NCBI RefSeq assembly: GCF_964355755.1
Contig: NC_092677.1
Location: forward strand, 15,398,101-15,462,100
DNA length: 64,000 nucleotides
From: Antedon mediterranea
Lineage: Eukaryota > Animalia > Echinodermata
Direction: 5' to 3'
The notes under the pieces were generated by a model that worked only from the letters and a program-made list of their open reading frames with translations, was not told the DNA's origin and ran no database searches. Made by a program: the position numbers and the translations under genes. Within the stretch, counting starts at the first letter, position 1. Each line of letters opens with the position of its first letter. Below are positions 6,755-61,039 of the stretch, piece after piece.

Positions 6755-6910
6755 ATGTTTGCACTTTACCACATGATTCTGGAACATGCGCAGGAACTTC
6801 AGTGGTGCGATATTACTTTGACGGAACGACATGCCTGGCATTTGCCTATATTTGCAATGGAAATGGAAACAATTTTTTAAGCCCATCAGCATGTGCAGAT
6901 GCATGCCAAG
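6755..6910 (+). CDS. Kunitz domain exon K1
   Basis: [52 protein letters not shown]; ctag|...G|gtag. Confidence 0.9.
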
Positions 6911-21900: not shown

Positions 21901-24900
21901 GTCATACTTTCGGTCAATTTTTTGTAAAATGTTTCATTGGAGCAAATAGAAATATGTACATTTTGAATACGGCTGTGAAAAAATCAGCTCTCTAGCATTA
22001 GTGGTTTTCGAGATATAGGACAACTGTAATTTTTTCCTCTTATTTGCATATTTTATTTACATTGTACTACTAATTTGCATACTTTCGAGGTGTTTGACAA
22101 AGGTGTGATTTTGGGAATTACAAAGTGATCCTATGCTGGCTATTAGGAACCTATGTCTGGGTCATTTGAGGGCAAAATAAAGTCTCTACAGACATTTTAG
22201 TCACATTGTATATGCAAACATTGAGAAATGGGGTCGAAGGTCAAATGTTGTACTTCCGGTCGTTTTTTCGTAAAATTTTTCATTAGAGTAAATATAAATA
22301 TATACATTTTGAATAGATCAGTGAAAAAATCAACTCTCTCGGACTAGTAGTTTTTGAGATATGGTAACCTTGTAATTTCACCCTAATTTGCATATTTAAG
22401 CTAATTTGCATATCATCGGGATGAGTGACAGAGGTGTGATGCTCAAATTTTGATCTCCTCATCATATATGACCATTTAAAAAAGAAAAATCTCTGTTTGC
22501 AATTTGTTTCACTTTGGGCTGTTTTTTTTGCTAGATTGACTAGCCTATATTTCGAAAAAAAAAAAAAAATTAATAAAAACAACAAATATATGTCGAAATT
22601 TCGATATAGCAAACAACAAATAAAAAAAATGTTTTGTTTTGTGTTTTTTTACGTATGTCGAAATTTCGAAAAACAAAATACATTGCACATTGGCCGTCGT
22701 TCATTTCAAATGTCTAATATTAGTGTTTTAGAAGTAAATTTCATATTGCCAGTTTGTTAATTCTATGTTGTCTCCCAGGGCTAGACAGTATAGCTCTTAG
22801 GCATAGCTAAACGAAGTTATACATAATTTCCCGGTTTACGCACGTATTTATATGTTGACATTTTAAAATTGCAAAACAAATAACAATTTGTTGTTTTATT
22901 TATTTGTTGTTTGTTTTGCTATCATGTCAAAATTTCGATATAGCTAGCTATATTTATATTCATGTGACAGGATTAGGCTTTCTTAACAAAAAAGAGCTAT
23001 TTCTGCAACATCTTGTGTATTACTATATTATACAGGAACTCGGCTGTTCTAATGCTTGACAAGAAACAACAGGTCATTTAACATAATACTTTTCCTCTAG
23101 ATATATGCACCCTATCACTAGTAGCGGGAACATGCGCAGTAGATCCTATGTTACGATATTACTTTGACGGCACGACATGTCAGCCATTTGCCTTTTATTG
23201 TAATGAGAATGCCAACAACTTTCAATCCAGCGAAGATTGTGAAAGTGCACGCGGAGCTAAATATGTGAACTAACAAGGACAAATTTTAAAGAAAAATACA
23301 ATATTTCTTTAAGGAAAAGTTAAAGATTTTAAGCTGTTTTTATGAATTTTTTTTTATTGAATTTTTTTACTATAGGCGTTAATCCATGTAGTTCTGCTCC
23401 TTGTCAAAATGGTGGGGTATGTAATACTCTTGGAACAAGCTTTACCTGCACGTGCTCTGGTTGTTGGATTGGAAATAACTGTGAAATAGGTTTGTTTCTT
23501 TCGTATATTTAGTGCACGCCCGTAACCTCCAGTGAAAAACTGCAATGAGCTTTGGTGGTCTCTAGTTTGAAAAGGGCAATAGAAGAAAAAGAAGGGTTCA
23601 TTCGTTAGCTTATTTACAAGTTATCGACGTCTGTTTTTGTGAAACAGGTCAGTGGCCTACCAACATTTGCAAGAAAATAATTTTAATATTGATATAATCA
23701 ACATAATGATTCTACTCTTTGATTAGAGGGTAATCATTTATTATAACATTGGTAATTTGTTTTCACTAGCTCAAAACCCTTGTGCCAACAACGTTTGTCA
23801 GAATGGAGGAGCGTGCGTTGCAGTAGCTGGTTCCTGTACTTCTTACACATGTACCTGTCCATCATGTTTCTCAGGAACATTCTGTGAAATAGGTAATTTT
23901 ACTAAACTATTAGTGATGTGCATGCCGCAGACAGACTATGACTATGCCTTCTTTCTTGATCAGTGTAAATTTGAATGTATACAGGGCATTAAATAAATGG
24001 TTTTTCTATTAGGCCAGGATCCATGTGCTGGAAGTGCATGTCAAAACGGAGGAGTGTGTACTGCTATTGCTGGTGTTTGTACTGCTTACACGTGTTCCTG
24101 TTCAGCATGCTTCACCGGTGCTTTTTGTGAAACAGGTCAGTGGCCTACCAAAATGTGCAAGAAAATAATTATAATATTGATATAATCCACATAATGATTC
24201 TACTCTTTAATTAGAGAGTAATAAGTTATTATAACATTGGTATTTTGTTTCACTAGCTCAAACCCCTTGTGCCAACAACGTTTGTCAGAATGGAGGAACG
24301 TGCGTTGCAGTATCTGGTTCTTGTACTTCTTACACATGTTCCTGTCCATCTTGTTTCTCAGGAACATTCTGTGAAATAGGTAATTATACTAAACTATTAG
24401 CGATGTGCATGCCGCAGGCAGACTAGAACTATGCCCTCTTTCTTGATCAGTGTGAATTTGAATGTTTTCAGGCCATTAAATAAAATATTTTTTATTAGGC
24501 CAGGACCCATGTGCTGGAAGTGCATGTCAAAACGGAGGAGTGTGTACTGCTATTGCTGGTTTTTGTACTGCTTACACGTGTTCCTGTCCAACATGCTTCA
24601 CCGGAGCTTTTTGTGAAACAGGTCAGTGGCCTACCAACATTTGCAAGAAAATAATTATTTATTTATTTATTTATTTATTAGGTTATATGCATGCATTCAT
24701 GCATATAACCTCTTGATTCTGTCAAAATCTTTATTTATTTCTTTATTTATTTATTTATTTGTCCGTCAATTATCTTGATATCAGTTTCATGTAACTAAGT
24801 CAATTTTTCAGAGTGTATTCCTTATGGCCAGGAATCGATGTGGTTATGTTTTCACGGTGCGCAATCAAACATTACGCGGTCTACGCGCGATTTTACAAAA

Positions 24901-27900
24901 TCATGTTTGTAATCATATCTTCACTAGCATGAATCACAATTAAACAAAATTTGGTACTCATAAATTTCAGGTCATATTTCATTATATGGCAATACAATTA
25001 CGTGCGTAGCGCATATAACGCTTGCGTACGCGCGCTTAAAATGTTCAAAATTGTCAAAATTTATTTTCGATGAAATTAGAGTACGTTTCAGGCAATTTTA
25101 AGCGTTTAAAAAATTGCCATGAGTGCGCCGATTTTTTCACGCGCACTGCGCGTTAAACGTTGATGCGCCCTCTTTTTGCCCGATTTCTGTTTTACAATCT
25201 TTCTTTAATAATATCATCATATTTGATTCACGTTTCAACTCGAAATTGCGTTATACGAGCACGTCAAAAGTGACTGGCTACGCACGTATAAGTTAACAAA
25301 ATGGTGAAAATATGCTAAATTTTAAAATTAATATATATCGTCAGAATGCAGGGGAACACCTATTTTTTATCTCATTTTCTTGAAGTGTATGTATCATATG
25401 TATGATTTATTGTCAAATTAAGAGAACAAAAGTTGATTAAGTCATCATTAATTGCATATTAAATTAAAAAAAAATAATTTCGACAATCAAACAAATTATG
25501 ACATTTTCTTAAGCCAAAATACCAAACTTAACATTAACTTTCTTCCTTCCAAAGTTCATATATTAAAGTTAAAAGTATATAGTTTGACAGTGCATCATTT
25601 GTTTACATTTTAAAGATGTCATCATAGTAAAAAATTATAATTCATTCTATTTGCACCAAACTGGTTACTGCATAGTAAATACACGGAGGAATTTTTCTAC
25701 AACTTTTAGTCAGTTGTGTATGGCTCGATGGTCTGTGCTCGTGTCTATGGCATTCAAGGTACCGAGATCGAGTCTCACCTCGGGAAACGAAATAAGATTT
25801 TTTTTTTATTATCCGTATTGTTTGTTCAAATTTATTTCTTAGTGTATAGATTATACACATGATTTATAATGAAATCTAGATAAAAATTAACTTATGTCTT
25901 TATTAGTATGTAACAACAAATGTGGTTTATGACATTATACGCATATGGATCTTTGATCGGATTGTGATACCGGCTATGGTGGTCGCGTTAGCAAGGTCCT
26001 ATCATATATTATAAATAATTAAAGATTCTGAGAAAATCAATCAATCAATATATCTTTTAAAAGTCAATTATCTTTATTTAAATCAATGCATATAACCTAT
26101 AATTCGTCATAATGACGAATTAAATCTAGTTTATTTATTTATTCTTTCCTTAGCACTATTTGTCCGTCAATTATCTTGATATCAGTTTCATCTAACTAAG
26201 TCAATTTTTCAGAGTATATTCCTTATGGCCAGGAATCGATGTGGTTATGTTTTCACGGAGCGCAATCAAACATTACGCGGTCTACGCGCGATTTAACGAA
26301 ATCACGTTTGTAATCATATCTTCACAAGCATGAATCACTTTTAAACAAAATTTGGTACTCATAAATTTCAGGTCATATTTCATCATATGGCAATACAATT
26401 ACGTGCGTAGCGCATATAACGCATGCGTATGCACGCTTAAAATGTTCAAAATATTCAGAATTTATTTTCGATGAAATTAGAGTACGTTTCAGCAAAGAAT
26501 ATAAATAGGTAAAGAATCAACAGTACGCGCTGTTATACATAGAAGGATAGGAAACGCGGACGCTTATTCATGGACGCGTAAGAATCCAGCAGCCGAACGA
26601 CGGCGGGCTCTAGATATGGTTCCCGTCTAATCCCACGTTTCGATGTATCGTGATGATCTGATGTGTTCTCGCGTCTGTGCTCTACTAATTTTGATATTAT
26701 TAATATTTTGATAATTATTTTGATAAATAATCATCGTTTGCATTTTGATAGATATTTACAATAAAAGTTTTACCTTACCCACGCCTGAAGGTGGCGCACC
26801 TCTTCTAGAGAAAAAGAAATGCGCCACCTTCAGGCGTAGGCAAATAGTAACCCGGATGTGGTTTACACCGCCAACGGAACTGTTGTATCTTTTCCTTTTA
26901 TTATCTTTGGTTTCAGGCAATTTTAAGCGTTTAAAAATTGCCATAAGTGCGCAGATTTTTGCACGCGCACTGCGCGTCAAACGTTATTGCGCACTGTTTT
27001 TGTCCGATTACTGTTGTATAACCTTTCTTTAACAATATCATCATATTGTATTATCTTTTCAACGCCAAACAGCGTTATACGAGTACGTCAAAAGTGACAG
27101 GCTACGCACGTGTAAGTTAACAAAATGGTGGAAATATGCTAAATTTTAAAATTAATATATATCGTTAGAATGCTCGGAAACACCGATTTTTTATTTCATT
27201 TTCTTGAAGTGTATGTATCATATGTATGATTTATTATGAAATCAAGAGAACAAAAGTTATTAAGTCATCATTAATGGCATATTAAATTTACAAAAATTAA
27301 TTTCGACAATCAAACAAATTATAAAATTTTCTTAGGCCGAAATAACAAACTTAACATTAACTTTCTTCCTTAAGAAGTTCATATATTAAAGTTAAAAGTA
27401 TATAGTTTGACAGTGCATCATTTTTAAAAATCTTTAAAGATGTCATCATAGTAAAACATTATAATTTATTGCGGTATGTAATAATCTATCTGCACCAAAG
27501 TGGTTACTGCATAGTAAATACACGGAGGAAGATTTTCATAATTTTTAGTCAGTTGTGTATGGCTCGGTGGTCTTTGCTCGTGTCTATAGCATTCAAGGTA
27601 CCGAGTTCGAGTCTCACCTTGGGAAACGAAACGAAATAAGATTTTTTTTTTATTATCCGTATTGTTTGTTCAATTGTATTTATTTCTTAGTGTATAGATT
27701 ATACAGATGATTTATAATGAAATTTATTTAAAAACACAAAATGTGGTTTATTACATTATATACGCAGAAGGATCTTTGATCGGATTATGATACCGGCTAT
27801 TGTATTTGCATTAGCAAGATCCTATCACATATTATAAATAACTAAAGATTCTGAGAAAATCAATCAATCAAAATATCTTAAATCAATCAATTATCTTTAT

Positions 27901-30900
27901 TTAAATCAATGCATATAACCTATAATTCGTCATAGTGACGAATTAAATATAGTTTTAATATTGATAACATCAACATAATGATTCTACTCTTTGATAAGAG
28001 AGTAATAATTTATTATAACATTGGTATTTTGTTTCACTAGCTCAAAACCCTTGTTCCAACAACGTTTGTCAGAATGGAGGAGCTTGCGTTGCAGTATCTG
28101 GTTCTTGTACTTCTTACACATGTTCCTGTCCATCATGTTTCTCAGGAACATTCTGTGAAATAGGTAATTATACTAAACTATTAGCGATGTGCATGCCGCA
28201 GACAGACTAGAACTATGCCCACTTTCTTGATCAGTGTGAAGTTGAATGTATACAGGCCATTAAATAAAATGTTTTTCTATTAGGCCAGGATCCATGTGCT
28301 GGAAGTGCATGTCAAAACTGAGGAGTGTGTACTGCTATTGCTGTTTTTTGTACTGCTTACACGTGTTCATGTCGAGCATGCTTCACCGGTGCTTTTTGTG
28401 AAACATGTTAGTGGCTTACCAAAATGTGCAAGAAAAGAATTACAATATTGATATAATCAACATAATGATTCTACTCTTTGATTAGAGAGTAATAATTTAT
28501 TATAACATTGGTATTTTGTTTCACTAGCTCAAAACCCTTGTGCCAACAACGTTTGTCAGAATGGAGGAGCTTGCGTTGCAGTATCTGGTTCTTGTACTTC
28601 TTACACATGTTCCTGTCTATCATGTTTCTCAGGAACATTCTGTGAAATAGGTAATTATACTAAACTATTAGCGATGTACATGTCGCAGACAGACTAGGAA
28701 TATGCCCTCTTTCTTGATCAGTGGGAATTTGAATGAATACAGGCCAGTAAATACAATTGTTTTCTATTAGGCCAGGATCCATGTGCTGGAAGTGCATGTC
28801 AAAACGGAGGAGTGTGTACTGCTATTGCTGGTATTTGTACTGCTTACACGTGTTCCTGTCCAGCATGCTTTACCGGAGCTTTTTGTGAAACAGGTTAGGG
28901 GCCTACCAAAATTTACAAGAAAATAATTATAATATTTATATAACCAACATAATGATTGTACTCTTTGATTAGAGAGTAATAATTTATTATAACATTGGTA
29001 TTTTGTTTCACTAGCTCAAAACCCTTGTGCCAACAATGTTTGTCAGAATGGAGGAGCTTGTGTTGCAGTATCTGGTTCTTGTACTTCTTACACATGTTCC
29101 TGTCCATCATGTTTCTCAGGAACATTCTGTGAAATAGGTAATTATACTAAACTATTAGCGATGTGCATGCCGCAGACAGACTAGAACTATGCCCACTTTC
29201 TTGATCAGTGTGAAGTTGAATGTATACAGGCCATTAAATAAAATGTTTTTCTATTAGGCCAGGATCCATGTGCTGGAAGTGCATGTCAAAACGGAGGAGT
29301 GTGTACTGCTATTGCTGTTTTTTGTACTGCTTACACGTGTTCATGTCGAGCATGCTTCACCGGTGCTTTTTGTGAAACATGTTAGTGGCTTACCAAAATG
29401 TGCAAGAAAAGAATTACAATATTGATATAATCAACATAATGATTCTACTCTTTGATTAGAGAGTAATAATTTATTATAACATTGGTATTTTGTTTCACTA
29501 GCTCAAAACCCTTGTGTCAACAACGTTTGTCAGAATGGAGGAGCTTGCGTTGCAGTATCTGGTTCTTGTACTTCTTACACATGTTCCTGTCCATCATGTT
29601 TCTCAGGAACATTCTGTGAAATAGGTAATTATACTAAACTATTAGCGATGTACATGTCGCAGACAGACTAGGAATATGCCCTCTTTCTTGATCAGTGGGA
29701 ATTTGAATGAATACAGGCCAGTAAATACAATTGTTTTCTATTAGGCCAGGATCCATGTGCTGGAAGTGCATGTCAAAACGGAGGAGTGTGTACTGCTATT
29801 GCTGGTATTTGTACTGCTTACACGTGTTCCTGTCCAGCATGCTTTACCGGAGCTTTTTGTGAAACAGGTTAGGGGCCTACCAAAATTTACAAGAAAATAA
29901 TTATAATATTTATATAACCAACATAATGATTGTACTCTTTGATTAGAGAGTAATAATTTATTATAACATTGGTATTTTGTTTCACTAGCTCAAAACCCTT
30001 GTGCCAACAATGTTTGTCAGAATGGAGGAGCTTGTGTTGCAGTATCTGGTTCTTGTACTTCTTACACATGTTCCTGTCCATCATGTTTCTCAGGAACATT
30101 CTGTGAAATAGGTAATTATACTAAACTATTAGCGATGTGCATGTCGCAGACAGATTAGGACTATGCCCTCTTTCTTGATCAGTGGGAATTTGAATGAATA
30201 CAGGCCAGTAAATAAAATTGTTTTCTATTAGGCCAGGATCCATGTGCTGGGAGTGCATGTCAAAACGGAGGAGTGTGTACTGCTATTGCTGGTGTTTGTA
30301 CTGCTTACACGTGTTCCTGTCCAGCATGCTTTACTGGAGCTTTTTGTGAAACAGGTCAGTGGCCTACCAAAATGTGCAAGAAAATAATTATAATATTGAT
30401 ATAATCAACATAATGATTCTACTCTTTGATTAGAGAGTAATACGTTATTATAACATTGGTATTTTGTTTTCACTAGCTCAAAACCCTTGTGCCAACAACG
30501 TTTGTCAGAATGGAGGAGCTTGCGTTGCAGTATCTGGTTTCTGTACTTCTTACACATGTACCTGTCCATCATGTTTCTCAGGAACATTCTGTGAAATAGG
30601 TAATTATACTTAACTATTAGCGATGTACATGCCGCAGACAGACTAGGACTATGCCCTCTTTCTTGATCAGTGGGAATTTGAATGAATACAGGGCATTAAA
30701 TAAATGGTTTTTCTATTAGGCCAGGATCCATGTGCTGGAAGTGCATGTCAAAACGGAGGAGTGTGTACTGCTATTGCTGGTGTTTGTACTGCTTACGCGT
30801 GTTCCTGTCCAGCATGCTTTACTGGAGCTTTTTGTGAAACAGGTCAGTGTCCTACCAAAATTTTCAAGAAAATAATTATAATATTGATACAATCAACATA

Positions 30901-33900
30901 ATGATTCTACTCCTTGATAAGAGAGTAATCATTTATTATAACATTGGTATTTTGTTTTCACTAGCTCAAAACCCTTGTGCCAACAACGTTTGTCAGAATG
31001 GAGGGGCGTGCGTTGCAGTATCTGGATCCTGTACTTCTTACACATGTACCTGTTCATCATGTTTCTCAGGAACATTCTGTGAAATAGGTAATTATACTAA
31101 ACTATTAGTGATGTGCATGCCGCAGACAGACTAGAACTATGCCTTCTTTCTTGATCAGTGTGAATTTGAATGTATACAGGGCATTAAATAAATGGTTTTT
31201 CTATTAGGCCAGGATCCATGTTCTGGAAGTGCATGTCAAAACGGAGGAGTGTGTACTGCTATTGCTGGTGTTTGTACTGCTTACGCGTGTTCCTGTCCAG
31301 CATGCTTTACTGGAGCTTTTTGTGAAACAGGTCAGTGTCCTACCAAAATTTTCAAGAAAATAATTATAATATTGATACAATCAACATAATGATTCTACTC
31401 CTTGATAAGAGAGTAATCATTTATTATAACATTGGTATTTTGTTTTCACTAGCTCAAAACCCTTGTGCCAACAACGTTTGTCAGAATGGAGGGGCGTGCG
31501 TTGCAGTATCTGGATCCTGTACTTCTTACACATGTACCTGTTCATCATGTTTCTCAGGAACATTCTGTGAAATAGGTAATTATACTAAACTATTAGTGAT
31601 GTGCATGCCGCAGACAGACTAGAACTATGCCTTCTTTCTTGATCAGTGTGAATTTGAATGTATACAGGGCATTAAATAAATGGTTTTTCTATTAGGCCAG
31701 GATCCATGTTCTGGAAGTGCATGTCAAAACGGAGGAGTGTGTACTACTATTACTGGTGTTTGTACTGCTGTACCAACGATTTGCAAGGAAATTGAATTAA
31801 TTTTTTTTTTTAAATTAAAGGACATATAGTTCTACTAATATTTTGATTGTTTGTTTTTATTAGCTCAAAACCCTTGTGCCAACAACGTTTGCCAGAATGG
31901 AGGAGCTTGTGTCGCACTATCTGGTTCTTGTACTTCTTACACATGTACCTGCCCATCATGTTTCTCAGGAACATTCTGTGAAATAGGTAATTATACTTAA
32001 CTATTAGAGATGTGCATGTCGCAGACAGACCAGGACTATGCCCACTTTCTTGATCAGTGGGAATTTGAATGAATACAGGCCATTAAATAAAATTGTTTTC
32101 TATTAGGCCAGGATCCACTCTGTGAAATAGGTAATTAAACTAGCCGATTGGCGATGTGTATGCCGCCGACTGACTATAGGGCCATGCTAAGTGTTTGTCA
32201 ATGTGTTTTATAATTAAAAAAATGAGAACAATCCATTTATAAAAAAAAATTCTATTAGGTCAAGATCCATGTTCTGGAAGTGCATGTCAAAATGGAGGAG
32301 TGTGTACTGCTATTGCTGGCATTTGTACTGCTTACACGTGTTCCTGTCCAGCATGTTTCACCGGTGCTTTTTGTGAAATAGGTTAGTACCCAAAAAAAGT
32401 CTACACGACAATTATATCAATATGTGTTTCACAATAATCGACATACTGTAATTATACTCCAAGTATACATGTTTTGTAATTCTTTGTTTTTATTAGCTCA
32501 AACACCCTGCGACAATAACCTTTGTCAGAATGGAGGTGCCTGTGTTGCTGTTACTGGTTCTTGTACTGCATACACATGTATCTGTCCAACGTGCTTCTCT
32601 GGATCATTCTGTGAAATAGGTAGGCTGGATAAGTAAACATGAATGTAAATGTTCATCTAGTTTTTAATAAAAACAAATGAATGTATACTATTATTTGTAT
32701 CAAAGCAATGGTAAATTACGAAAATAGATGGTAAATACCTTCTTGACGGTTCCGTTGTTTTTTTTTTCTCTTTTGTGGGGATTTTACCCACTTTTATTTC
32801 TTATAAAAATTCATATGTTTGTAAATAATATTTATCTTTATATAATATGCACAATTTTCATTAATATTTGTTTCTCTACTCTCAATTAATACAGATGTAA
32901 GTTTTTCTTATACATACATTAAGATATAATAATAATTATAATTATAAAACAAAATTATATTTTCATAACTATATACAAGTATTTCAACTCAAATATCCAT
33001 AACAAAATAATTATAATTTTTAATTAATACCAATTATCAATATGTTATACTTTAAACATGTTCATAGCATTTCTTTAACACTTTCTTTTTACATGAACAT
33101 AATTATAATTTTCTTATGGTATTATATTTTATACACATTAAATTTAAGTATAAATTGTTAATATACACATATAATTCCTTTATGAATGTATATTTCTAAT
33201 TTAATCATGCTTTGATTCTTATGTAACATTCTTCTACATAAATTCATATAATAATTCATAGTTTTATCTAGTATAGTTTGTTGTTTGCAACATTTTATCT
33301 CATAAAAAAAAAATTGTTTATATTTCTACCAAGCTAACTTTTTTTTTTTTTCAATTATTAATAAAACATTTGAAGTTATATATAGTATTAGTTGAGCAGC
33401 ATGAATTATAATAGTACAATGTAGTATTTTCTTTTACAATAACTTATTTTTTATTTTTTATTTTAAACGATTATCAGATGACTGCTAAACACACTATGCA
33501 TAATGTATCACTTGTTGTTAAAACACAATTATTTGCTTTAACTTTACATATCCGAGATAATATTTTGTATCATCTGCCATCTTTTCCTTCCATTTACTTT
33601 ATCAATATATATGTCACCTTTTATTCGTAATGTAATACTGTATTTAAAAGAGTTCCATATAGATATGGACTTATGCAACTCTGACATTATTTTGTCTTTA
33701 TATATAGTAAATGCAGTTAAGGAATAGATGTAACCTATTAATCTAATTTCTGTTCCAAGTACAATGTTTCTAAAGGATACATTGTCATACCCCAAAAATC
33801 TTAGAATATTACAAATTTTTATCCAGAATTCTCGAATATATGTACAACTAAATGACATATGGTTTTCATCTTGAATATCCCCACATTTTTTACAGGTACC

Positions 33901-36900
33901 GGTATCCTTTATTTTCCATATAAAAAGCCTTTTGTTTGTTGCCAAGATTCTATGTAATAGTTTATAATTAAATTCAGCTAATTTTTTGTCTTTCATTTTG
34001 CATATTTTATTTTAGCCAACATGATTTCCAATATATATAATTATTATTGAAATATTGTTCCCATTTTTTGTGTGCAAGGGGTAAAATAAATACCTCTTTT
34101 ACAAAACTTAAATATACTGTTGTTGTTTGTATAACTTCAAACCGATTTTCAGCAGTATAATCTATAATATTGAAGATACAGTTATTTGATATTTTTATAG
34201 TGCGTTTCCATTCTTTAGGTATCGCCTTAATTATGCATAAGTATTCGTTTAGCCAATTGGATTTACATTTTAATTTAATTTTCAATTCTTCTGAAGTTAA
34301 AAATTTATTCTTCTTGACGATATCTTTAATTAAGATGATATCACTTTCGATCCAATGTTTATACAATAGTGATTTATGTTTTAATTGTATCAAGGAGTTA
34401 CCCCACAACTGCTCATTCATTATTTCTTCATAACTTTGCACAGGATTTTTATTGCATTTGTTATATTCCGTACAAGCTTCCGTTGTTCATTACATGGATA
34501 GATAACTAAAAATTGATAATCTAAATATTTCAGAATAATGGCAAAGCTCGATCAGTGGGTTATATGATTTTTTTTCCATATCACACGCTCACAAATTTAT
34601 AACACTTCTTTGAATAATTCCTTGTCGGTGCCAATGGCGTTAATAATACTGATACAATTCTAAAATGTTTTCTGTTTGCCTATTCGCATTCCAGTTATAA
34701 TACTGAATCATTTAATATATTTTAGGTCAGGATCCATGTGCTGGACATCTTTGTCAGAATGGAGGATTGTGCAATGCTATTGCTGGGGTCTGTTCTGCGT
34801 ACACATGCACCTGTCTAGGATGTTTTACTGGTTCATTTTGCGAAACAGGTTAATCAGCAAGCTTTTACTGGATATAATTATTGTATTACTTTATTATTTA
34901 GATTTTTATTTGTGTTGTGTAATGTTTAATTTGTGATAATCTTTGCCAGACTTTTTCCTGCAATATCTTGTTCCTGACCAGCTTAAATTTGCCTGCCTAG
35001 CTTAAATTTGCCTGCCCAGCTTAAATGTGCCTGCCCATTAATATAATTCTTTAACTCATCTTCAACAAAATGAATCATCAATATTTTGATACACACTGTA
35101 CGTTTTTTCAGGTCAGAATGCTTGTGGTAACAACCTTTGTCAGAATGGAGGTGCTTGTGTTGCTGTTGCTGGTTCCTGTACTGCTTACACATGTTCATGT
35201 AACGGATGCTTTACTGGAACTTTCTGTGAAATAGGTAAACTATATAACTATTTTTAGTTATGTTATTTATAGGCAATATAAATACCGTTCAGCAATAGGC
35301 CTAACTGTGTACACAATGTTATTCTTCGCTTTAGGCCAGAATGCTTGTGCTAACAACCTTTGCCAGAATGGAGCTGGCTGTACCGCTGCTGCTGGTTCTT
35401 GTACCTCTTACACTTGTACCTGTCCATCATGCTTCTCAGGAACATTCTGTGAAATAGGTAGTTACTAAACTATTAGTGATATAAATGTCACAGCAGACGT
35501 ATTGCGGGCATGAACTCTCTTTGTCTGTGTGTTTTAAAATGTTTACATTCTCAACCCAAGGCTTATTTGAGCAACCTCACATAATATGAACTTATTAAAT
35601 ATGTTATTAAAAGTGTTTTATAAATTAAAATGAAACAATAAACAAATGAATAAATACAGGTCATCCATTGAATAATATTCTTTTCTTATTAGGTCAGGAT
35701 CCATGTGCTGGAAATCTGTGTCAGAATGGAGGAATGTGTACTGCTATCGCTGGTGTATGTACTTCTTACACGTGTTCCTGTCCAGCATGTTTCACCGGTG
35801 CTTTTTGTGAAACAGGTTAGTACCCTAAAAAAACATGTTAGTGGCCTACCAACATGTACAAAACAATTGTATCAATATGTTATACTTGATAATCAACATT
35901 ATGATTCTACACCTTATAAAATTGATTTCCTTAGCTCAAAATTCTTGCGACAATAACCTTTGTCAGAATGGAGGTGCCTGTGTTGCTGTTACTGGTTCCT
36001 GTACTGCTTACACATGTATATGTCCGACATGTTTCTCTGGAACATTCTGTGAAACAGGTAAACAATTATTTTCATTATTTCTATTCTATAATTATAAATA
36101 TGTTAATTTTAACTGAAATAATATAAATGACTTTTAGTAATAACTTGGTAAAAAATGTATGTTTCTATTTCAGGTGAGAATGCTTGTGCCAACAACCTTT
36201 GTCAGAACGGAGGTGCTTGTGTTGCTGTTGCTGGTTCCTGTACTGCTTACACATGTACATGTCCAGCATGCTTCACTGGAACATTCTGTGAAACAGGTAA
36301 TTATTAATTAATTCTCTTTAGTTATGTTATGTACCTATAGGCAATAAAAATAGCTTCCAGCAATTCACAATGCTTTTCTTTTTAAAGGTGAGAATGCTTG
36401 TTCTAACAATATTTGTCAGAATGGAGGTACCTGTGTTGCTGTTGCTGGTTCGTGTACTGCATATACATGTTCCTGTAGTGGATGTTTTACTGGAACTTTT
36501 TGTGAAATAGGTAGACCTTTGAATTATTGTAGTCTTTAGGCCAAAGTGATATTTTTTTTTATAGATTTTGTGACAACAACCTCTTTCAGAAATGAACTGC
36601 TTGAGTTGCTGGATCTTGTACTGCATACACGGGTGTATGTTCACATGTTCCTGAACATCCTGAACTCTTATAGTTATACATTATTTAGGCTCTATTACTT
36701 TCAGCAATAACTTTGTCTACTATTTTGTTCAGGTCAGAATGCTTGTGACAACAACTTGTGTCAGAATGGAGGTGCTTGTGTTGCTGGTACTGGTTCGTGT
36801 ACTGCATACACATGCATCTGTCCAACGTGCTTCTCTGGAACATTCTGTGAAATTGGTAAATTCAGTTATAGTTAAATGGTAGTATTATCGTAGGCAATAT

Positions 36901-39900
36901 AACTTAGTTCTAAAAATACAATAACTTGTTACACATGTATTGTTGTTTTGTTTAGGTCAGAATGCTTGTGTCAACAACATTTGTCAGAATGGAGGAGTTT
37001 GTAACACTGTTGCTGGTTCTTGTACTGCATACACATGTACCTGCAGTGGATGTTACACAGGAGCATTCTGTGAAACAGGTAAACAATTATACTTCTACAG
37101 TCATTCTCTGGTGTGATGATAACGTCTAAAATAGTCTTCATTCGATTAACACAAATATCTGCTACAGTAATGAATCTACATGTACCACTGTTTGGATATT
37201 GTACCCGTTTTATTCAATAGAAAAGTAGTGCGTGTATTCTGCTGCTCAATGTTTATCCCCCAGATATTTCATTTTCAAGTCATATTTATTTAAAACACTG
37301 TAAAAAGTAATAAACAATAATTCAATGAAAGTTAGATATTCTGAATGCAAGGTTTTTTTTTTGTATTTTTTTAAACAGATACCAGTGCTTGCGCAACAGA
37401 TATTTGTCAAAACGGAGGAACCTGTATTATTGGAGCTACGTGTACACAATTCTCTTGTTCCTGTCCGGCTTGTTCTAGTGGTTTCATGTGTGACGTCAGT
37501 AAGTTTATATATATATATATATATAAGTAACAACGTATCTGTTGTGTCATATGCGCAACCAGTAAGTTCAGAGACGTAGAAAAAAATGCACGTGGTGACA
37601 TTGTTCTTCCACATCATCGTCATCCACATAATAATAAATGAAAAAGAATGTATTAAAAATTAAAAGTTGGCTCATTTTTGTATAAGATGTAATGGTAATA
37701 ATTAAAAAAGATACACTTTTCCCTCCTCACCCCCTAACAAAAGAATTTTTTAACCAAAAAACTTCTTTCGATTTTATTATCTCAATTTAGATTTTTACTT
37801 ATTTATGTTTATCTCCCTTGATTAATACACAGTAACATTTTTGCTATTTAAAAAATAATGTTTGTAAATCTAACGATAATAATCTAAGTCTAATTTCTTC
37901 TGGTACTTAGTTGATTGATTTAAATGAACGTACTTCCTTTTTTAATACCTTATTCATTTGTTTTATTGTTATTGATTGAGTGAAGTGAAAATAGTCTAGG
38001 CTATAGGGCCTACATATATATATATATATATTTATAAAATGTAGTATTCATTTGTTTTATTGTTGCTGATTGAAAGAAAGAAAATAAATGATTACGTTGA
38101 ATTGAATTGAATTGAAGTTATATTTATTATCAAAGTATTATAACAATTACGATTGTTTTGATTATTTATGAACAATTTAGTTACTAATGCGTGCAGCAAC
38201 AACCCTTGTTTGAACGGTGGACAATGTCAGACATCAACCGATTCATGCAATGCATTTTCATGTATTTGCCCTTCTGGCTTTTCTGGTACAGTATGCGAGG
38301 GTAAGTCTTATTTCTTTTTTTTTGTAATGGTTGAGTTAGTTTAACTAAATGTTTAGCTACAGGATGATATATAGCTAGCACCTGAATGAATATGTGCGCT
38401 ATATAAGTTTTTATTATTATTGCTATTACTATGAGTTTCTTTGTCATCAAAACAAATATTTATAAGAAATAATACATAAAAAGAAAAGCTCAAAACAGCT
38501 TGTGAACAAAAGACTAGACTATGTAAAAAGTAAAATACTACCGATAAAATTGTCACTTAATATGAACAAGGCCATATACATGGCTGCAGTTGCGTGCGCA
38601 AATTTGAGTTAGTGTTTACCGACCGACCGACATAGTGAGCTGTAGAGTCGCGTTTGCACGCGACTAAAAATAATAACAATACTCCATAATTATCAAAACT
38701 GCAGTCTTTCTTATCTAAATCTTTGTGTACGTTGTATTCTTTTAATCTGTGAAAACATGTGGAAATAAATATCTAGGATAGTATTAGTTTCATAATTTGT
38801 GAATTCCTTTCACAAGTTGTGAAAGTAATTTTATTAAATTATTTCAAATTAAAATTTAAAAACAATAATAAGTGTAAATATCATTCATATCTAACGATAG
38901 TATATTTCATTATTTGATTGTTTTTATGTATCCCACACACTATGTTTAATTATTATTATTATTAAAGATACTTTATGAAAATAATTCAAAAAATAAATCA
39001 AATAGAAATAATAATGTTGTATTTAATAGTTTCAACAGGTCCCTGTAGTAGTTCTCCTTGTCTGAACGGAGGTCAGTGTACTGACTTTACAACATTTTAT
39101 ACCTGTGCCTGTCCAACTTCATACACTGGTACAAGATGTGAAATATTTTGTAAGTTATATTGAAAAATATACAAATTGTCCAAAATAAATGTCATGGTTC
39201 AGTATTATTTTCAATTTTAAGATAGTTCGTCTTGTATCTTTTTTTTCTTTTCCATTTATTGCTCTTTAAAAATCATCACACGAGAATTGTCTCATAATGA
39301 CAACAAAGCATGATCATTTAAGTTAACAATATTTTTGCTTGTTTATAGTACAACCATGCAGTTCAAACCCATGTCTTAACGGTGGTGTGTGCCTTCAATC
39401 TGGAACAATGTACATGTGCGCATGTGATACTGGATACATTGGGACAAATTGCGAGACTTTCAGCGGAAGTAAGTATCTCAACAAATAAAAGCAAAATTAG
39501 TCATTGTTTTCTTTTTCTAGAAAACCAACAAAATGAAGATTTAAAGATATTTTGTTTTTGAGTAGTTGAATCATTTTAGTGGAAACATTTTTGTTTATTG
39601 TTTCTGTTTATTTATTTTTAAAGTCTTGGAAATTAAGTTACTTATGAATTGATTTCTAAGTAAGTAAATTCTGGCACTTTCAAATTAAAGAATTGATTGA
39701 TTCAACAGTGTTTGGTAAAGGTGCTTCTATAATAGGAAAAAATTCAGAAACTCAAAATAGGCCTAAAAAATTACATTATTGACTGATAACATTTGAATGT
39801 GACAATGTAAGTAGGCCTAGTATTACTGGGTGTTAACTTCATTAACCCAACCAACAAATATGATAAAATGTGGTAATAGTTGTTTGTTGTTATTACAGCG

Positions 39901-41900
39901 AGTCCATGTGATTCAAATCCATGCCAGAATGGAGGTGTCTGTAGTCTAACTACTACATCAACTTATATGTGTATGTGCTCTGGAAGTTACATAGGAACCA
40001 ACTGTGAAACATGTATGTAAGATGTTTTTTTTTTCTAATTTTTTTTGGCTTCAAATTCATTTAGTGTACGGAAAACATAACAACTAAAGACGAAGCTTAA
40101 TTCTATTTTACTCTGTCTACTTAACGTTGCCAAAGAATAAGAACATTTTTTATTTTTAAATTATACATCAGGGAATAGTGAAATTAATCACCCTTTCCTG
40201 GGTTAATGAACACAGGTTACAGGCACAAAAATATACTTAAAATACACAGCGAACAATGTCTTTTCTTCAGTTCTTTTTAAATTAAAGATAAACACAAATT
40301 AGCTCGGCCTATTTATCATAACTTGCTGTTGATTTTAAACTTGTCTACGCTTTGCCTCGGCTTGATTGTTGTAACTTGTTATTTACCCGTGCAAAACATC
40401 AAATAAATGTAATAATTGATGTTTTTCTCAGTTTCTGATGTCAACTCATGCGACAGTAGCCCTTGTCCAGCTGGTCAATTATGCTTCTATACACCAGTAA
40501 TGTACCTTTGTACGGATTCAGGTAAGCCTATCACAATTTCAATTAATTCTCAGTGCTGTTTCTTCACATATGGCAACTTGTGTACAGTATAATAATTATA
40601 ATTTCGTAATTGCTAAAAAAAAATCTGTAAAACGTTACCTATAAGCCATTTAAACAACTTACTTTTGTTATGCTCAATATTTTATCTGTTTCGTTTTTTG
40701 ACCTTTTTTGTATTGTTTTATAAAATATTTCTTTTTTGTATTGTTGCATATTTGTATTGTAGGGGCCCTCATGAGACAAGCTATTGCTTCTAGTGCGGCC
40801 CCAGTTATTGTCAAAAATCTGAACACATGTGTATGAATAAATGAATGAATTAATGAATACAGGAGTCAAATGATTCCTGTATCATGTAATTTTTATTTCA
40901 ATATTTTTGTTATAGCTACTACTGGAAGGCGTCGCAGAGATGTTGAAAGTGAGTTTTCATTGCATAGTGTTCATCTTTTTTATATATAGATGTGTTGTTG
41001 AATATTCAATTTAAATACATTTTTTTGCATCCAAAAGTAATAAATAGTAGGGTAGGGTCAACTACAATTAGTGAAGGCAGATTCTCAAAAGTTGGCGAAA
41101 AACAAATTTGATTCAAAAGGAATGCAATTGTAAAAATTAAATTAAAAATAAAATAAATAACTCAATAAATGAATAAATACCTAACCACAATCAGAAAATG
41201 ATTCCAATATTTTAAAAAGATAGTAATATTCATCACTGTGTAAATGATTGTTTCAGTTTCGTTGGAGTTGCCAGGCTATTCCAGGGCTTGCTCTCCCAAT
41301 CCATGTAATAACGGTGGTTCATGTGACCCTTTTGAAGTTGATGGCCGTGAATTATTTCTATGTCAGTGTTTACCTGGATGGAATGGACCAAGGTGTATGA
41401 ATGGCAAGTACACGTTGGGTGTAATCACATTCCTTGTTTTTTGTTATGTTTGTAAATCTGTTTATCCCCATACAACATTAAGATTAGTTAATGAGAAGGC
41501 TGCTAAATCAGCCAATATCATTAACAGCTATGTTGTTATCTGGCCTCTTGTCTCCAAACTGTATAAATATACTAAAATATATAATAATTCAAGTAGCTAC
41601 TTTTGATCAAAAGCAATTGTTGGAATGTGCTACAGCTATACAGGCATCTCACGATATTTAAATGTTCTGCCACTACCGAATGAATGTAATAAACGTCATT
41701 GATTGGTTACAGCTGTGGAAAACGGTACGTCTGATCGTGAAGATCCGCAAGATCAAGATCAAGATTACATCCACTATACAATGGTGATTGTACTTTGTAC
41801 ATTGACTGTGGTTGTATTGGGGTTACTTCTGATGTTGAGCTGTGTCATCATCGCCAAACGAAGTAGCATAGTTAAGGACAAGATTGCTTTGGTCAACTAG
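6755..41900 (+). CDS. Multi-exon gene for a giant type I membrane protein: Kunitz/EGF region, ~31 8-Cys EGF repeats, EGF x3, furin site, EGF, TM (Notch/fibropellin-like EGF repeat protein; 5' end not identified)
   Basis: More than 50 exons with AG/GT boundaries, all phase 1-1 and a multiple of 3 in length, splice in frame to stop TAG 41898-41900. AATAAA at 42116. The first visible exon starts at a splice acceptor, so the start/signal exon lies upstream. Confidence 0.9.
7164..7277 (+). CDS. 6-Cys EGF exon
   Basis: [37 protein letters not shown]; AG/GT, 114 nt. Confidence 0.9.
   Translation: MLHVIALLVLMEVLVPTLIQATVVHVQVCILAQCVKH
7500..7970 (+). mobile_element. Degenerate Tx1/L1 ORF2 fragment in intron
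   Basis: The LWENKLI...SLYFK and IPNEWK-like segments resemble the Tx1 copy at 34007-34441 (LWGNSLI...IPKEWK). Broken by stops and frameshifts. Confidence 0.55.
7975..8190 (-). mobile_element. LINE 3' UTR fragment (same family as 3520-3740)
   Basis: Near-identical to 3530-3730 (GTTTATGG..AAGAcACACAGAAGCCAA..GTGGCTTGT..AAGCATAAA..CAAAGTGAGAT). Confidence 0.7.
8953..9075 (+). CDS. 6-Cys EGF exon
   Basis: [40 protein letters not shown]; 123 nt. Confidence 0.9.
9204..9359 (+). CDS. Kunitz domain exon K2 (identical to K1)
   Basis: Same 156-nt sequence as 6755-6910; AG/GT. Confidence 0.9.
9571..9684 (+). CDS. 6-Cys EGF exon
   Basis: [37 protein letters not shown]. Confidence 0.9.
   Translation, partial: LLHVIVLLVLMEVLVPTLIQATVVHVQVCILAQGVKH
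10001..10123 (+). CDS. 6-Cys EGF exon
   Basis: [40 protein letters not shown]; AG/GT. Confidence 0.88.
10324..10365 (-). ncRNA. Minimal type I hammerhead ribozyme motif (Penelope-like element remnant)
   Basis: Minus strand reads UUGCA-CUGAUGA-A-GGGC(UAGUGUU)GCCC-GAAAGCUC-UGCUAA: core CUGAUGA/GAAA, 4-bp stem II, palindromic AGCU helix III, UC cleavage site. Confidence 0.65.
10564..10680 (+). CDS. 6-Cys EGF exon
   Basis: [39 protein letters not shown]; donor gtaagt. Confidence 0.88.
10894..11058 (+). CDS. Kunitz domain exon K3
   Basis: [55 protein letters not shown]; donor gtaaga. Confidence 0.88.
11140..11340 (+). mobile_element. Degenerate tRNA-derived SINE-like sequence
   Basis: B-box-like GGTTCAAGTCC near 11193, preceded by an A-box-like segment; no intact cloverleaf. 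Confidence 0.35.
11632..11751 (+). CDS. 6-Cys EGF exon
   Basis: [39 protein letters not shown]. Confidence 0.88.
12149..12265 (+). CDS. 6-Cys EGF exon
   Basis: [38 protein letters not shown]. Confidence 0.88.
12590..12706 (+). CDS. 6-Cys EGF exon
   Basis: [38 protein letters not shown]. Confidence 0.88.
13243..13365 (+). CDS. 6-Cys EGF exon
   Basis: [40 protein letters not shown]; donor gtaagt. Confidence 0.88.
13987..14028 (-). ncRNA. Second copy of the minimal hammerhead ribozyme motif
   Basis: Identical to 10324-10365, with shared flank GTGAAGGAATTTGGA. Confidence 0.65.
14153..15824 (-). mobile_element. Non-autonomous canonical Helitron
   Basis: On the minus strand it begins A|TC (15824) and ends CTAG|T (14153), with a GC-rich 3' hairpin GATGGTACGCGAGCGAAGCGAGCGTGCCATC and no TSD. 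Internal tandem duplications of ~265 bp (~14725-15255) and ~113 bp (~15398-15625). Confidence 0.8.
15958..16802 (-). mobile_element. Long DINE-1/HINE-like element with two (GTCY)n microsatellite tracts
   Basis: Same termini as the short family (TTTTAGTCGCGTG...GGCCTTGTT). The internal 16165-16650 segment is the reverse complement of the core of the 24680-27952 elements. Confidence 0.7.
17355..17522 (+). CDS. Kunitz domain exon K4
   Basis: [55 protein letters not shown]; ccag|...G|gtaagt. Confidence 0.88.
17571..18638 (+). mobile_element. 5'-truncated, frameshifted RTE-clade LINE
   Basis: Translates [21 protein letters not shown]...TYADHVD...VGSLLG...RGRPR; ends in an (ATC)n tail. Confidence 0.8.
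18693..18809 (+). CDS. 6-Cys EGF exon (TAGTAG tandem acceptor; alternative start 18690)
   Basis: [38 protein letters not shown]. Confidence 0.88.
   Translation, partial: SQLHVIVLLVLMEVLVPTLLQATVVHVQVRILAQGVKH
19194..22545. mobile_element. Foldback DNA element with long inverted arms built of ~360-bp subrepeats
   Basis: Termini GGCTAGTCAATCTAGCA / TGCTAGATTGACTAGCC flanked by TA. ~19194-20350 is the reverse complement of ~21410-22545. Confidence 0.85.
23101..23256 (+). pseudogene. Decayed Kunitz exon K5 (last Cys changed to Arg; donor GT changed to CT)
   Basis: [52 protein letters not shown]|ctaaat; read-through stop TAA at 23271-23273. Confidence 0.75.
23376..23489 (+). CDS. 7-Cys EGF exon (N-terminal cap of the 8-Cys array)
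   Basis: [37 protein letters not shown]; the extra Cys is only in the C5-C6 loop. Confidence 0.88.
   Translation, partial: ALIHVVLLLVKMVGYVILLEQALPARALVVGLEITVK
23770..24621 (+). CDS. 8-Cys EGF exons A/B/A/B: 23770-23892, 24013-24135, 24257-24379, 24499-24621
   Basis: A = [40 protein letters not shown]; B = [40 protein letters not shown]; each 123 nt, AG/GT. Confidence 0.9.
24680..27952 (+). mobile_element. Tandem pair of HINE/DINE-like Helentron derivatives (24680-26129, 26130-27952)
   Basis: 5' subTIR AGGTTATATGCAT (24680-24692) with adjacent inverse copy (24699-24711). 3' subTIR ATGCATATAACCT (26086, 27909) is followed by stem-loop AATTCGTCA..TGACGAATT and (C/A)TAG-TT. Inserted in a T-rich intron site. 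Confidence 0.8.
26493..26909. mobile_element. P-element-like MITE nested in the second HINE copy
   Basis: Absent from copy 1. 7-bp TSD GTTTCAG (26486-26492, 26910-26916). Imperfect TIRs CAAAGA.../...TCTTTG. Internal hairpin at 26781-26838. Confidence 0.7.
28041..31575 (+). CDS. Homogenised 8-Cys EGF A/B exon array: 28041-28163, (28284-28406 has a stop), 28528-28650, 28771-28893, 29015-29137, 29258-29380, 29502-29624, 29745-29867, 29989-30111, 30232-30354, 30477-30599, 30720-30842, 30965-31087, 31208-31330, 31453-31575
   Basis: 123-nt exons with AG/GT in a 487-488-bp tandem unit that includes the introns. Confidence 0.9.
28284..28406 (+). pseudogene. B-type EGF exon with an in-frame premature stop
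   Basis: GGA changed to TGA at 28319-28321; the twin copy 29258-29380 has GGA. Confidence 0.75.
31696..31769 (+). pseudogene. Truncated B-type EGF exon (3' half and donor deleted)
   Basis: [25 protein letters not shown] then jumps into intron sequence (TACCAAC..TTGCAAG). Confidence 0.7.
31864..32619 (+). CDS. 8-Cys EGF exons 31864-31986, 32259-32381, 32497-32619 (plus possible 24-nt micro-exon 32107-32130)
   Basis: 123-nt exons with AG/GT and the same 8-Cys spacing. Confidence 0.87.
32760..34477 (-). mobile_element. 5'-truncated Tx1/L1-clade LINE in intron
   Basis: Minus ORFs 34007-34441 and 33544-33996 ([13 protein letters not shown]...CKKC...H...C). T-run at ~32758-32767. TSD TTCCGTTGTT at 32750-32759 and 34478-34487. 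Confidence 0.88.
34726..37498 (+). CDS. Older, diverged 8-Cys EGF exons: 34726-34848, 35112-35234, 35335-35457, 35693-35815, 35935-36057, 36174-36296, 36388-36510, 36733-36855, 36956-37078, 37379-37498
   Basis: All retain 8 Cys and AG/GT; the introns have diverged. A decayed exon lies at ~36565-36658. Confidence 0.9.
38181..38300 (+). CDS. 7-Cys EGF exon (C-terminal cap of the 8-Cys array)
   Basis: [39 protein letters not shown]; the extra Cys is only in the C3-C4 hairpin, with normal PSGF. Confidence 0.9.
38565..38670 (-). mobile_element. Short DINE/HINE-like element
   Basis: Reverse-complement homologue of 5941-6042. Confidence 0.6.
39030..39149 (+). CDS. 6-Cys EGF exon
   Basis: [39 protein letters not shown]. 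Confidence 0.88.
39349..39468 (+). CDS. 6-Cys EGF exon
   Basis: [39 protein letters not shown]; donor gtaagt. Confidence 0.88.
39899..40012 (+). CDS. 6-Cys EGF exon
   Basis: [37 protein letters not shown]. Confidence 0.88.
40432..40521 (+). CDS. 4-Cys half-EGF exon
   Basis: [29 protein letters not shown]; ctcag|...G|gtaagc, 90 nt. Confidence 0.8.
40740..40860 (+). mobile_element. CR1/L2-type LINE 3' end
   Basis: GGGGCC...GGCCCC stem followed by an AATAAATGAATGAA tail. Confidence 0.5.
40916..40948 (+). CDS. 33-nt micro-exon encoding a furin site ([11 protein letters not shown])
   Basis: Polypyrimidine + tatag acceptor and gtgagt donor, phase 1-1. Confidence 0.8.
41257..41403 (+). CDS. Juxtamembrane EGF exon with a GC donor
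   Basis: [49 protein letters not shown]|gcaagt. Confidence 0.82.
41713..41900 (+). CDS. Terminal exon: acidic stalk, TM helix, short cytoplasmic tail
   Basis: [62 protein letters not shown]. Confidence 0.85.
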
Positions 41901-42121: not shown

Positions 42122-42794
42122 CTGTTAAGTTTATGTTGGAGCTCATTAAATCACTCAAACTTGTTAGAAATATTGTTTAATTACATGATAATAGTTTTAG
42201 GCATGTACTTAATTATTATTATTATTTTTAATCTTCGTGTACACAACCATAAATAAGTAATATTTAATATGCCTATTTTGAGTTAAATGTAAAAAAATAG
42301 AAAATGTATAATATTAGGCTTAATAGTAATATTATTCAAATGTTGCCATCGCCATTCGCTAATCATTTTTCCTTTCAATATTAATATTATTATTGTAGCT
42401 CTAATAAAATAGCTTGATAATGCAAATGTTTTGGTTTTATTTTTAGTGATTAGTACTAGAAACTAAAACAACAGCTAATGGTGAGCAATCAATCTTATAA
42501 CTGCTCATTAGCATAATAAGTATAGGCCTCGGTAGATTTTATTAGAGAGGTTTCGCAATCTTACGAATATGATAACGAAAACGGATACGTCACGCACACT
42601 TATTCGTTTTCGTAAGCCAGTAAAAATCTGTTTCGCGTGGTATCGAAATATTGAGGGCGCCGTCCAAAATATGACTGCGGTAAATTTGAGCGAAGAGAAG
42701 GTACGTATTGCTTGGTGCTTGGCTGCCTAGGCCTAGCGTAACGTCAGAGCGAGTGAGGACTTTAAAAACTGCTATTTATCTAAATTGACCTGGC

Positions 42795-45146: not shown

Positions 45147-45167
45147 TTTAGTAAATTACTTTAGTAA

Positions 45168-60106: not shown

Positions 60107-61039
60107 ATGCAAGATGGGGCTTTCATCAAAATAACAGGTGACGTGATCTACCAACAAGCATTGGATCAGTGTCTGCAACTGAAAGGAACTCCTGCGTCCT
60201 ACGAGCAACTGGTGTCTGCCATCAAATACGGAATGAATATGACATGTGATCAGTGTTGGCTATTCAGTGGAGAATTAACCTTCAGCAATGAAGACACCGG
60301 GTGTGATCTTGTGGATGCATCGACTCGCTTCAACCTGTATCCAGAACTTGATGAACTATATAGTTGCTTCTACTGCTACATTTACTCAGACCAAGCAAAA
60401 GACAAGCATAGCTACTACCCTGCTAGCAAGCTTCTCCATCTTAGAAGAAATAAAGATACAGGGTATAATTATGATGAGGCGGAAACCCGATGTCAGGACG
60501 AGTTTGGAGGTCACATGGCGCTACCTATGGAGGTGTATAATGCTAGTTTAAGTGGTGTTGACAATTGCATAGGAGGACGATCGTGGTTTTCACACAATAT
60601 GTCTGGAAAGTGTTGCTATGAAGACTCTAATGTTACATGTTGGTCTAATATTCTAGTTGGTGGAAAATTTAAAGTAATGAATCTTCTAGATAAATTGTAT
60701 AGCGTGTTTTGTTCGCTAACAAACAACAATCTGAACGAGTATCCATATCCATCTCATAGGGTACTAGCAATTAGAGGAGAAAGTACGAACAGTCTCACAT
60801 ACGAAGAAGCTGTGGTAAAATGCGGTGATATTGGCGGTTCAATTGCAACGAAAGATCAAGTTAACCAGGCTTACATGATGGGTTATCAATCTCAAATATT
60901 TGGTTGGGTTGCAGAACAGGAAGCAGTAAAGTCATGTTCCGTGTCCACCAACAACTGTCCATCGATAGGCTTACTTGAAGACATGGAAATCAATCCTGAG
61001 TACGACGCATTTTGTTACATTCCTCCTGATAATTTTTAG
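60107..61039 (+). CDS. Terminal exon with three Link (Xlink/C-type-lectin fold)-like modules
   Basis: 310-aa ORF directly after ttttag. Three repeats of Y-x-x-A-x-x-x-C...G...A...Q/E...G...W...x-F/Y-C (e.g. LTYEEAVVKCGDIGGSIATKDQVNQAYMMG..GWV..YDAFCY). Confidence 0.8.
   Translation: MQDGAFIKITGDVIYQQALDQCLQLKGTPASYEQLVSAIKYGMNMTCDQCWLFSGELTFSNEDTGCDLVDASTRFNLYPELDELYSCFYCYIYSDQAKDKHSYYPASKLLHLRRNKDTGYNYDEAETRCQDEFGGHMALPMEVYNASLSGVDNCIGGRSWFSHNMSGKCCYEDSNVTCWSNILVGGKFKVMNLLDKLYSVFCSLTNNNLNEYPYPSHRVLAIRGESTNSLTYEEAVVKCGDIGGSIATKDQVNQAYMMGYQSQIFGWVAEQEAVKSCSVSTNNCPSIGLLEDMEINPEYDAFCYIPPDNF

Follow-up and report, generated by a model that had tools for sequence, protein, structure and literature searches.

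Organization of the locus

The window analyzed here, a stretch of 64,000 nucleotides from the crinoid Antedon mediterranea, is AT-rich animal DNA that carries a many-exon gene on the + strand, and within this gene lies a long array of EGF modules with eight cysteines each (Table 1). Using a six-frame scan, exon enumeration and local alignments, we found 32 full-length exons of this 8-Cys type, all in phase 1-1, between positions 23770 and 37498; 31 are 123 bp long and one is 120 bp, and all 32 keep their AG/GT ends and frame. The Cys spacing of the array, combined with a Gly three residues before C6, has 31 matches in the window and none in 100 shuffled versions, the 32nd exon having a loop one residue shorter than the pattern allows. 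The array modules have the six canonically spaced cysteines and the C4-x-C5 motif of hEGF/Notch-type domains. Of the two additional cysteines, one (Cx) belongs to the C3-C4 loop and precedes C4 by five residues, and the other (Cy) is the residue just before the packing aromatic of the C5-C6 turn.

An initial annotation of this DNA had described such repeats as bracketed by complementary caps, and our analysis reproduces this arrangement: the exon just before the array (N-cap) has seven Cys, with Cy only, the exon just after it (C-cap) has seven, with Cx only and the PSGF motif restored, and all 14 full EGF exons outside the block (10 upstream and 4 downstream) have six. With both caps included, the modules number 34 and the junctions 33, which agrees with the "about 33" modules first reported. 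The 40-residue array exons stop two residues past C6, and the linkers in the window are of the types IAQNP and TGQDP. Both caps score above the cut-off of the Pfam EGF model, while the three array exons tested fall below it (19.5, 11 and 14.3 versus 21.5 bits). Purifying selection acts on the array exons: among the 31 exons of 123 bp, the nonsynonymous-to-synonymous ratio (pN/pS) is 0.24 for A copies, 0.30 for B copies and 0.37 for older copies, and all eight Cys are invariant while 26 of the 32 other columns vary, with Cy encoded by TGT in 17 exons and by TGC in 14.

Table 1. Exons and exon remnants of the gene (positions in the window).
Position	Strand	Feature	Basis
6755..18809	+	Four Kunitz and ten ordinary 6-Cys EGF exons, all phase 1-1, same inferred gene	
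Starts 6755, 9204, 10894, 17355	+	The four upstream Kunitz exons	Exon enumeration
23101..23260	+	Kunitz exon, probably dead, lacking the sixth Cys and the usual donor	Sequence, Pfam
23376..23489	+	N-cap EGF exon, 7 Cys, Cy only	Pfam EGF match
23630..23650	+	Remnant: 3' end and donor of a B-type array exon	
23770..32381	+	Young array part: 21 full 8-Cys exons, A and B mostly alternating, 487-bp tandem unit	
28284..28406	+	8-Cys array exon with in-frame TGA in the assembly	
31696..31773	+	Truncated B exon	
32107..32130	+	Collapsed 24-nt mini-exon, AG/GT ends; would add one unpaired Cys if spliced in	
32497..37498	+	Older, more diverged array part: 11 full 8-Cys exons	
about 36558-36670	+	Decayed array copy within the older part	
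38181..38300	+	C-cap EGF exon, 7 Cys, Cx only, PSGF restored	
39030..40521	+	Three 6-Cys EGF exons, then a 4-Cys half-EGF (40432-40521)	
40916..40948	+	33-nt exon with tetrabasic furin-type site RRRR-DVE	Motif also in P0066, read by eye
41257..41403	+	Last 6-Cys EGF exon, GC donor	
41713..41900	+	Predicted last coding exon: hydrophobic transmembrane-like stretch, short basic tail, stop	Sequence inference

The Pfam Kunitz_BPTI model (PF00014) scores above its cut-off, with six Cys present, in the three intact upstream Kunitz exons tested (6755, 10894 and 17355); the translation of exon 9204 is identical to that of 6755, and the Kunitz and EGF exon pairs at 6755-7277 and 9204-9684 look like a recent duplication. 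The Kunitz exon at 23101 also exceeds the Pfam cut-off, though it has only five Cys, and shows 52.7% identity to residues 249-303 of the relative P0066, where a Kunitz domain precedes a Cy-cap. Repeat-rich DNA at about 24650-27950 interrupts the young part of the array. No exon for a signal peptide was found. The tetrabasic motif is assigned by the established furin consensus, and judged from its sequence the predicted gene product would be anchored as a type I membrane protein, with an ectodomain that a furin-type cut could release.

Coupling of the extra cysteines in relatives

The annotation had proposed that Cy of module n bonds to Cx of module n+1, and had asked whether homologous arrays always carry Cy-only N-caps and Cx-only C-caps. 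We examined the junctions between EGF modules in 448 distinct proteins, pooled from protein searches that gave the best 120 of 1221, 120 of 1688, 120 of 229 and 150 of 4083 matches. Each EGF was parsed with a regular expression that places Cx 4-5 residues before C4 and Cy 6 residues before C6; a protein with an 8-Cys module or an adjacent Cy-Cx pair was counted as a carrier, and junctions with a gap of up to 12 residues were counted as adjacent. The module is carried by 37 of the 448 proteins. At their adjacent junctions, Cy(n) and Cx(n+1) occur together in 139 cases and are both absent in 100, with Cy alone in one and Cx alone in one. In the reverse direction there is no coupling (both 85, neither 80, single 45 and 31). 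The other 411 proteins contain 4697 junctions, of which 4692 have neither Cys, five have Cx and none has Cy.

The cap rule is visible in the relatives: 25 of 39 runs are complete from Cy-cap to Cx-cap, with 0, 1, 2, 3, 4 or 6 repeats between the caps, and in the remaining 14 the parser identified no cap at one end or at both, mostly in partial records or through parser misses. When one protein is taken per identity cluster (21 clusters), mismatches fall to 0 of 167 junctions, whereas shuffling the module order 5000 times gave 54 mismatches on average and never fewer than 37; the longest cassette was chosen in each cluster, which dropped both mismatched proteins, and common ancestry limits the independence of these junctions. 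The positions are also well kept, with Cx at C4-5 in 85 of 90 modules, Cy at C5+3 in 86 of 90, an aromatic directly after Cy in 81 of 89, and a C3-C4 loop of 11 residues in 70 of 88. The linker from C6 to C1 is 6 or 7 residues long at 134 of the 139 coupled junctions and ranges from 3 to 12 residues at the uncoupled junctions of the same proteins.

These results support the n to n+1 interpretation, and we consider it very probable that Cy of each module is disulfide-bonded to Cx of the next. Such a bond leaves no Cys without a partner, accounts for the order of complete runs, always from Cy to Cx, and accounts for the fixed length of the linker. A fourth disulfide within each module, with the caps as leftovers or bonded to other partners, could be suspected from the fact that 121 of the 184 extra-Cys modules in the carriers have both cysteines (32 are Cy-only and 31 Cx-only) and from the few proteins with unpaired caps. 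That pairing, however, would leave two free Cys per cassette and cannot account for the order of the 25 complete runs or for the absence of reverse coupling; moreover, the hairpin tip and the C5-C6 turn of an EGF lie at opposite ends and face the preceding and the following module, respectively. We regard it as highly improbable.

Predicted structure of the junction

In tandem EGFs, the C5-C6 turn of one module packs on the hairpin tip of the next (accessible part of PMC4826273), and Cy (C5+3) and Cx (C4-5) fall on this known packing surface. An AlphaFold2 model was built from a 15-row cassette alignment with a Diadema query, and so represents the cassette of a relative and not the spliced protein of the window; its predicted local distance difference test score is 88.7 and its predicted template modelling score (pTM) is 0.45. 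The EGF fold, with a major and a minor hairpin, is predicted for this cassette. Its first three modules superimpose on Notch1 EGF11-13 with Z 10.4 and a root-mean-square deviation (rmsd) of 2.5 Å over 115 residues, compared with an rmsd of 13.6 Å over 148 residues for the bent EGF4-7; a second structure search gave a similar fit to EGF11-13. A model of the N-cap and the first repeat as separate chains scored 0.03, showed no contacts and is uninformative. We take the position of Cx to be that of the residue touching the aromatic in Notch1 and fibrillin pairs; a literature search on the fibrillin residues found nothing relevant.

The same complementary caps would also be expected from a staggered parallel dimer, in which Cy(n) bonds to Cx(n+1) of a neighboring chain and cross-links fibres, an adhesive or a matrix network. 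Scallop Sbp9, which has 49 EGF-like repeats, reportedly employs surface Cys for inter-domain and intermolecular exchange (accessible part of PMC13348336), and in sea star adhesive tandem EGF proteins are common (PMC9382459, likewise in part). On the other hand, Cx and Cy sit on a surface known to pack within a chain, and it is precisely at the junctions with both Cys that linker length is confined to 6-7 residues, as an intra-chain bond predicts. Minimal Cy-then-Cx doublets also exist, outside any 8-Cys module, in the ENA proteins P0405 (parsed) and P0230 (by eye). Bonding between chains therefore appears improbable to us, and the bond between neighbors of one chain remains the preferred reading.

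Several observations weigh against this pairing. Three proteins (P0398 and the Amphiura proteins P0399 and P0430) start with an 8-Cys module right after a non-EGF domain. In P0391 a 6-Cys EGF precedes an 8-Cys module, and the linker contains an additional Cys; in the partial record P0246 an 8-Cys module precedes a 6-Cys one; and in P0004 a 6-Cys EGF comes after the last module, which itself carries an additional adjacent Cys. Lone modules also occur, with Cx past a basic cleavage site in P0035 and P0066, and with Cy at the end of P0035 and once in P0375. Automatic gene models make up most of the homologues, and since the cassette may have arisen only once, the junctions cannot be counted as independent events. 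The pTM of the whole model is low, and the disulfide is a prediction. Finally, four broken remnants and the dead Kunitz exon point to decay at the locus itself, where splicing is only predicted.

In P0035 and P0066, both from Anneissia japonica, a truncated five-Cys EGF lies upstream of the lone Cx module. As a speculation, the odd Cys of these two modules could tether the cleaved halves of the protein.

Distribution and closest relatives

The carriers span at least four echinoderm classes as well as hemichordates, a range that is a lower bound because only the best-listed matches were parsed. They include sea urchins (Lytechinus, Diadema), sea cucumbers (Holothuria, Apostichopus), a brittle star (Amphiura), one crinoid and the hemichordates Ptychodera, Glandiceps and Saccoglossus; in addition, a foraminiferan record has a divergent Cy-Cx doublet. 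The host proteins vary widely, with HYR arrays, FN3 domains plus a predicted membrane anchor, Kunitz, SRCR and MAM domains, and a gene model resembling a G-protein-coupled receptor. P0230 and P0405 are unlike the echinoderm carriers, and P0297, from Oikopleura, has a lone Cy module followed by extra Cys in a non-EGF stretch; judged by these three proteins, the staple may extend past echinoderms and hemichordates.

The closest relatives of the Antedon gene are the Kunitz-EGF proteins of Anneissia, with best single-module identities of 71-72% among the matches listed (P0066, at 72%, is the best local match). P0066 shares with this gene the order Kunitz, Cy-cap, repeat, and the half-EGF followed by RRRRDVE. 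The capped cassette is found in XP_033100020.1, XP_033117248.1, XP_071488833.1, XP_041472953.1 and XP_070564509.1, which are automatically named "fibropellin-1-like", "hyalin-like" or "Notch-like", names that are silent on the module. Such echinoderm and hemichordate relatives have 0-7 repeats, compared with 32 here; XP_077980025.1, for example, contains a short stretch of two 8-Cys modules between caps.

Pattern scans of metagenome, prokaryote-genome and viral contigs at the DNA level were swamped by TGC-rich repeats, the metagenome scan covering 4 of 64 parts, and gave real modules in one of 303 loci, a metagenome contig (L023) with a Cy-cap and two repeats on separate exons. Whole-cassette profile searches were full of ordinary EGF arrays and served mainly as controls, and the ESM Atlas returned generic EGF clusters only. 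The SNED1 records of frogs (P0003, P0006-P0014 and related) are ~1800 residues long, compared with ~1400 in other vertebrates, the extra length being a long expansion of ordinary 6-Cys EGF repeats.

Comparison with known EGF variants

The module is a real, conserved EGF variant with four predicted disulfides, of the hEGF/Notch type by sequence and predicted fold. In EGFs of this type the canonical Cys pair 1-3, 2-4 and 5-6. The module resembles the modules of Notch and fibrillin rods such as Notch1 EGF11-13 in its six canonical Cys, Notch-like spacing and six-residue C6-C1 linker (compared with the accessible part of PMC4826273), and also in the aromatic at C5+4 and in the near-linear packing predicted here. 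It differs from them in the two extra Cys at the packing surface and in its lack of a calcium site. Calcium-binding EGFs have the consensus D/N-x-D/N-E/Q before C1; this consensus, tested as D/E-x-D/N-E/Q, was found at none of the 139 coupled junctions. In Notch rods, stiffening comes from calcium and hydrophobic packing.

In integrin I-EGF modules, an extra Cys lies in a very short C3-C4 hairpin and its partner directly follows the final Cys of the preceding module. Here, in contrast, the partner would lie within the previous C5-C6 loop, the C3-C4 loop is long, and the linker of the array has no Cys (the linker Cys of P0391 being an exception among the relatives). The two are alike in having four disulfides, one of them interdomain, as predicted here and as described for I-EGF (1-5, 2-4, 3-6 and 7-8, one forming a bridge between EGF1 and EGF2) in the accessible part of PMC12383024. 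Pfam listed no I-EGF model for any of the five exons tested, three from the array and the two caps.

The 8-Cys repeats of laminin LE also form tandem rods, with the C7-C8 loop added after the EGF core, unlike the present module, in which both extra Cys are inside the core. EGF_laminin was not listed by Pfam for the array exons tested, and a laminin structure matched the model with Z 2.7. TB (8-Cys) domains have three consecutive Cys and a non-EGF fold; CCC is absent from every full array exon, and an EGF fold is predicted. By the features tested, the module is neither a laminin LE, nor an integrin I-EGF, nor a TB domain, in line with the annotation. Teneurins contain EGF repeats with an odd number of Cys that link outside the module, and non-canonical Cys also serve such links in Sbp9 (accessible part of PMC13348336). 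In these proteins the links are between chains or dynamic; the Cys count here is even and ordered by the caps. CREMP (bioRxiv 10.1101/2025.09.16.676614) was considered and rejected: as far as the accessible part describes it, this module has two disulfides and its linkers are flexible.

No dedicated Pfam model for the 8-Cys module is listed, and PDB sequence and fold searches placed Notch, Delta and ordinary EGF chains on top, with both extra Cys in no displayed alignment. No description of the module was found in the literature searched, most subscription papers, including Wouters et al. 2005, being outside its scope. That paper reportedly treats the fourth disulfides of laminin and integrin as interdomain links, and it could mention this case. 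The annotation had recognized no described counterpart, which appears to hold for this Cy-Cx pairing but not for the concept of an interdomain fourth disulfide, already known from integrin I-EGF (PMC12383024, accessible part). The variant is probably undescribed and is closest in concept to I-EGF.

Integrity of the array

The annotation had omitted the stop in exon 28284, the four remnants and the defective Kunitz exon. Together with the near-identity of the 487-bp units and the fact that more than 7 consecutive repeats were seen in no relative examined, these features allow a different view, namely that the module is real but the locus is a decaying or mis-assembled tandem expansion from which the full 34-module protein is never made. 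Against this view, pN/pS is low in the young A and B copies as well as in the older ones, and frame and AG/GT ends are kept in every full exon. Furthermore, the stop may be an assembly error, since base 28319 is G in every covering short-read contig (four runs, one sample) and the T of the assembly was unseen, with the limit that such contigs collapse repeats and lose rare variants. The contigs span much of the unique part of the locus with few differences. We consider a locus that makes no full-length protein unlikely, though clearly less so than the alternative pairings discussed above. No splice joints were present among the rows listed for one run guessed to be RNA, and this run covered intronic repeats.

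At 35920-37221, the contig depth summed in each of three runs is ~10x that of neighboring bins. Additional copies of these exons may lie elsewhere in the genome, although summed depth is no measure of copy number.

Proposed mechanism and implications

If all 34 exons are spliced into one protein, one Cy(n)-Cx(n+1) disulfide per junction would lock the predicted rod without calcium, and stiffness and resistance to pulling would follow by analogy. Internal exons could be duplicated, lost or skipped without freeing a thiol; this interchangeability would account for array lengths of 0-7 repeats elsewhere and 32 here, and for the tolerance of dead copies. The host is probably a crinoid protein that is either anchored in the membrane as type I or shed by furin, and its rod would act as a spacer between the Kunitz/EGF domains and the cell surface or matrix.

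On balance, and with more reserve than for the pairing itself, we lean toward a broader view: that the module represents a class of EGF with a fourth disulfide, so far undescribed and dating back at least to the echinoderm-hemichordate split, in which a covalent staple between neighbors replaces calcium. In this form it would be a self-capping cassette that moves among unrelated surface proteins (HYR, FN3, Kunitz, SRCR, MAM) and acts as a calcium-free ruler, whose length exon duplication or skipping could set anywhere between 2 and 34 modules while leaving no thiol free. In EGF arrays, which belong to the best studied protein repeats, stiffening is known to depend on calcium and a small hydrophobic contact. 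A covalent staple, if confirmed, would be a further route to a four-disulfide EGF beside those of laminin and integrin, would offer a testable model for inter-module geometry and mechanics and a template by which pairs of the Notch or fibrillin type could be fixed in rod form, and would unite automatically named echinoderm and hemichordate surface proteins by one structural cassette.

Other elements in the window

Just downstream of the gene, a 705-codon open frame at 42784-44901 (+) matches the Pfam reverse transcriptase family RVT_1 and belongs to an element of the long interspersed nuclear element (LINE) type. LINE-type fragments with zf-RVT or RVT_1 matches occur at 206-853, 17661-18131 and 33544-34486, two of them inside introns of the gene; the part at 34007-34486 gave no Pfam hit. 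The intron before the N-cap contains two blocks of a 345-346 bp tandem repeat (19331-22397), apparently opposite in orientation as judged by eye. A tandem satellite of ~8 kb, with a unit of 195-196 bp, occupies 45167-53459, and a 310-codon single frame at 60107-61039 (+) contains three stretches of Link (Xlink) module and is a separate gene or exon.

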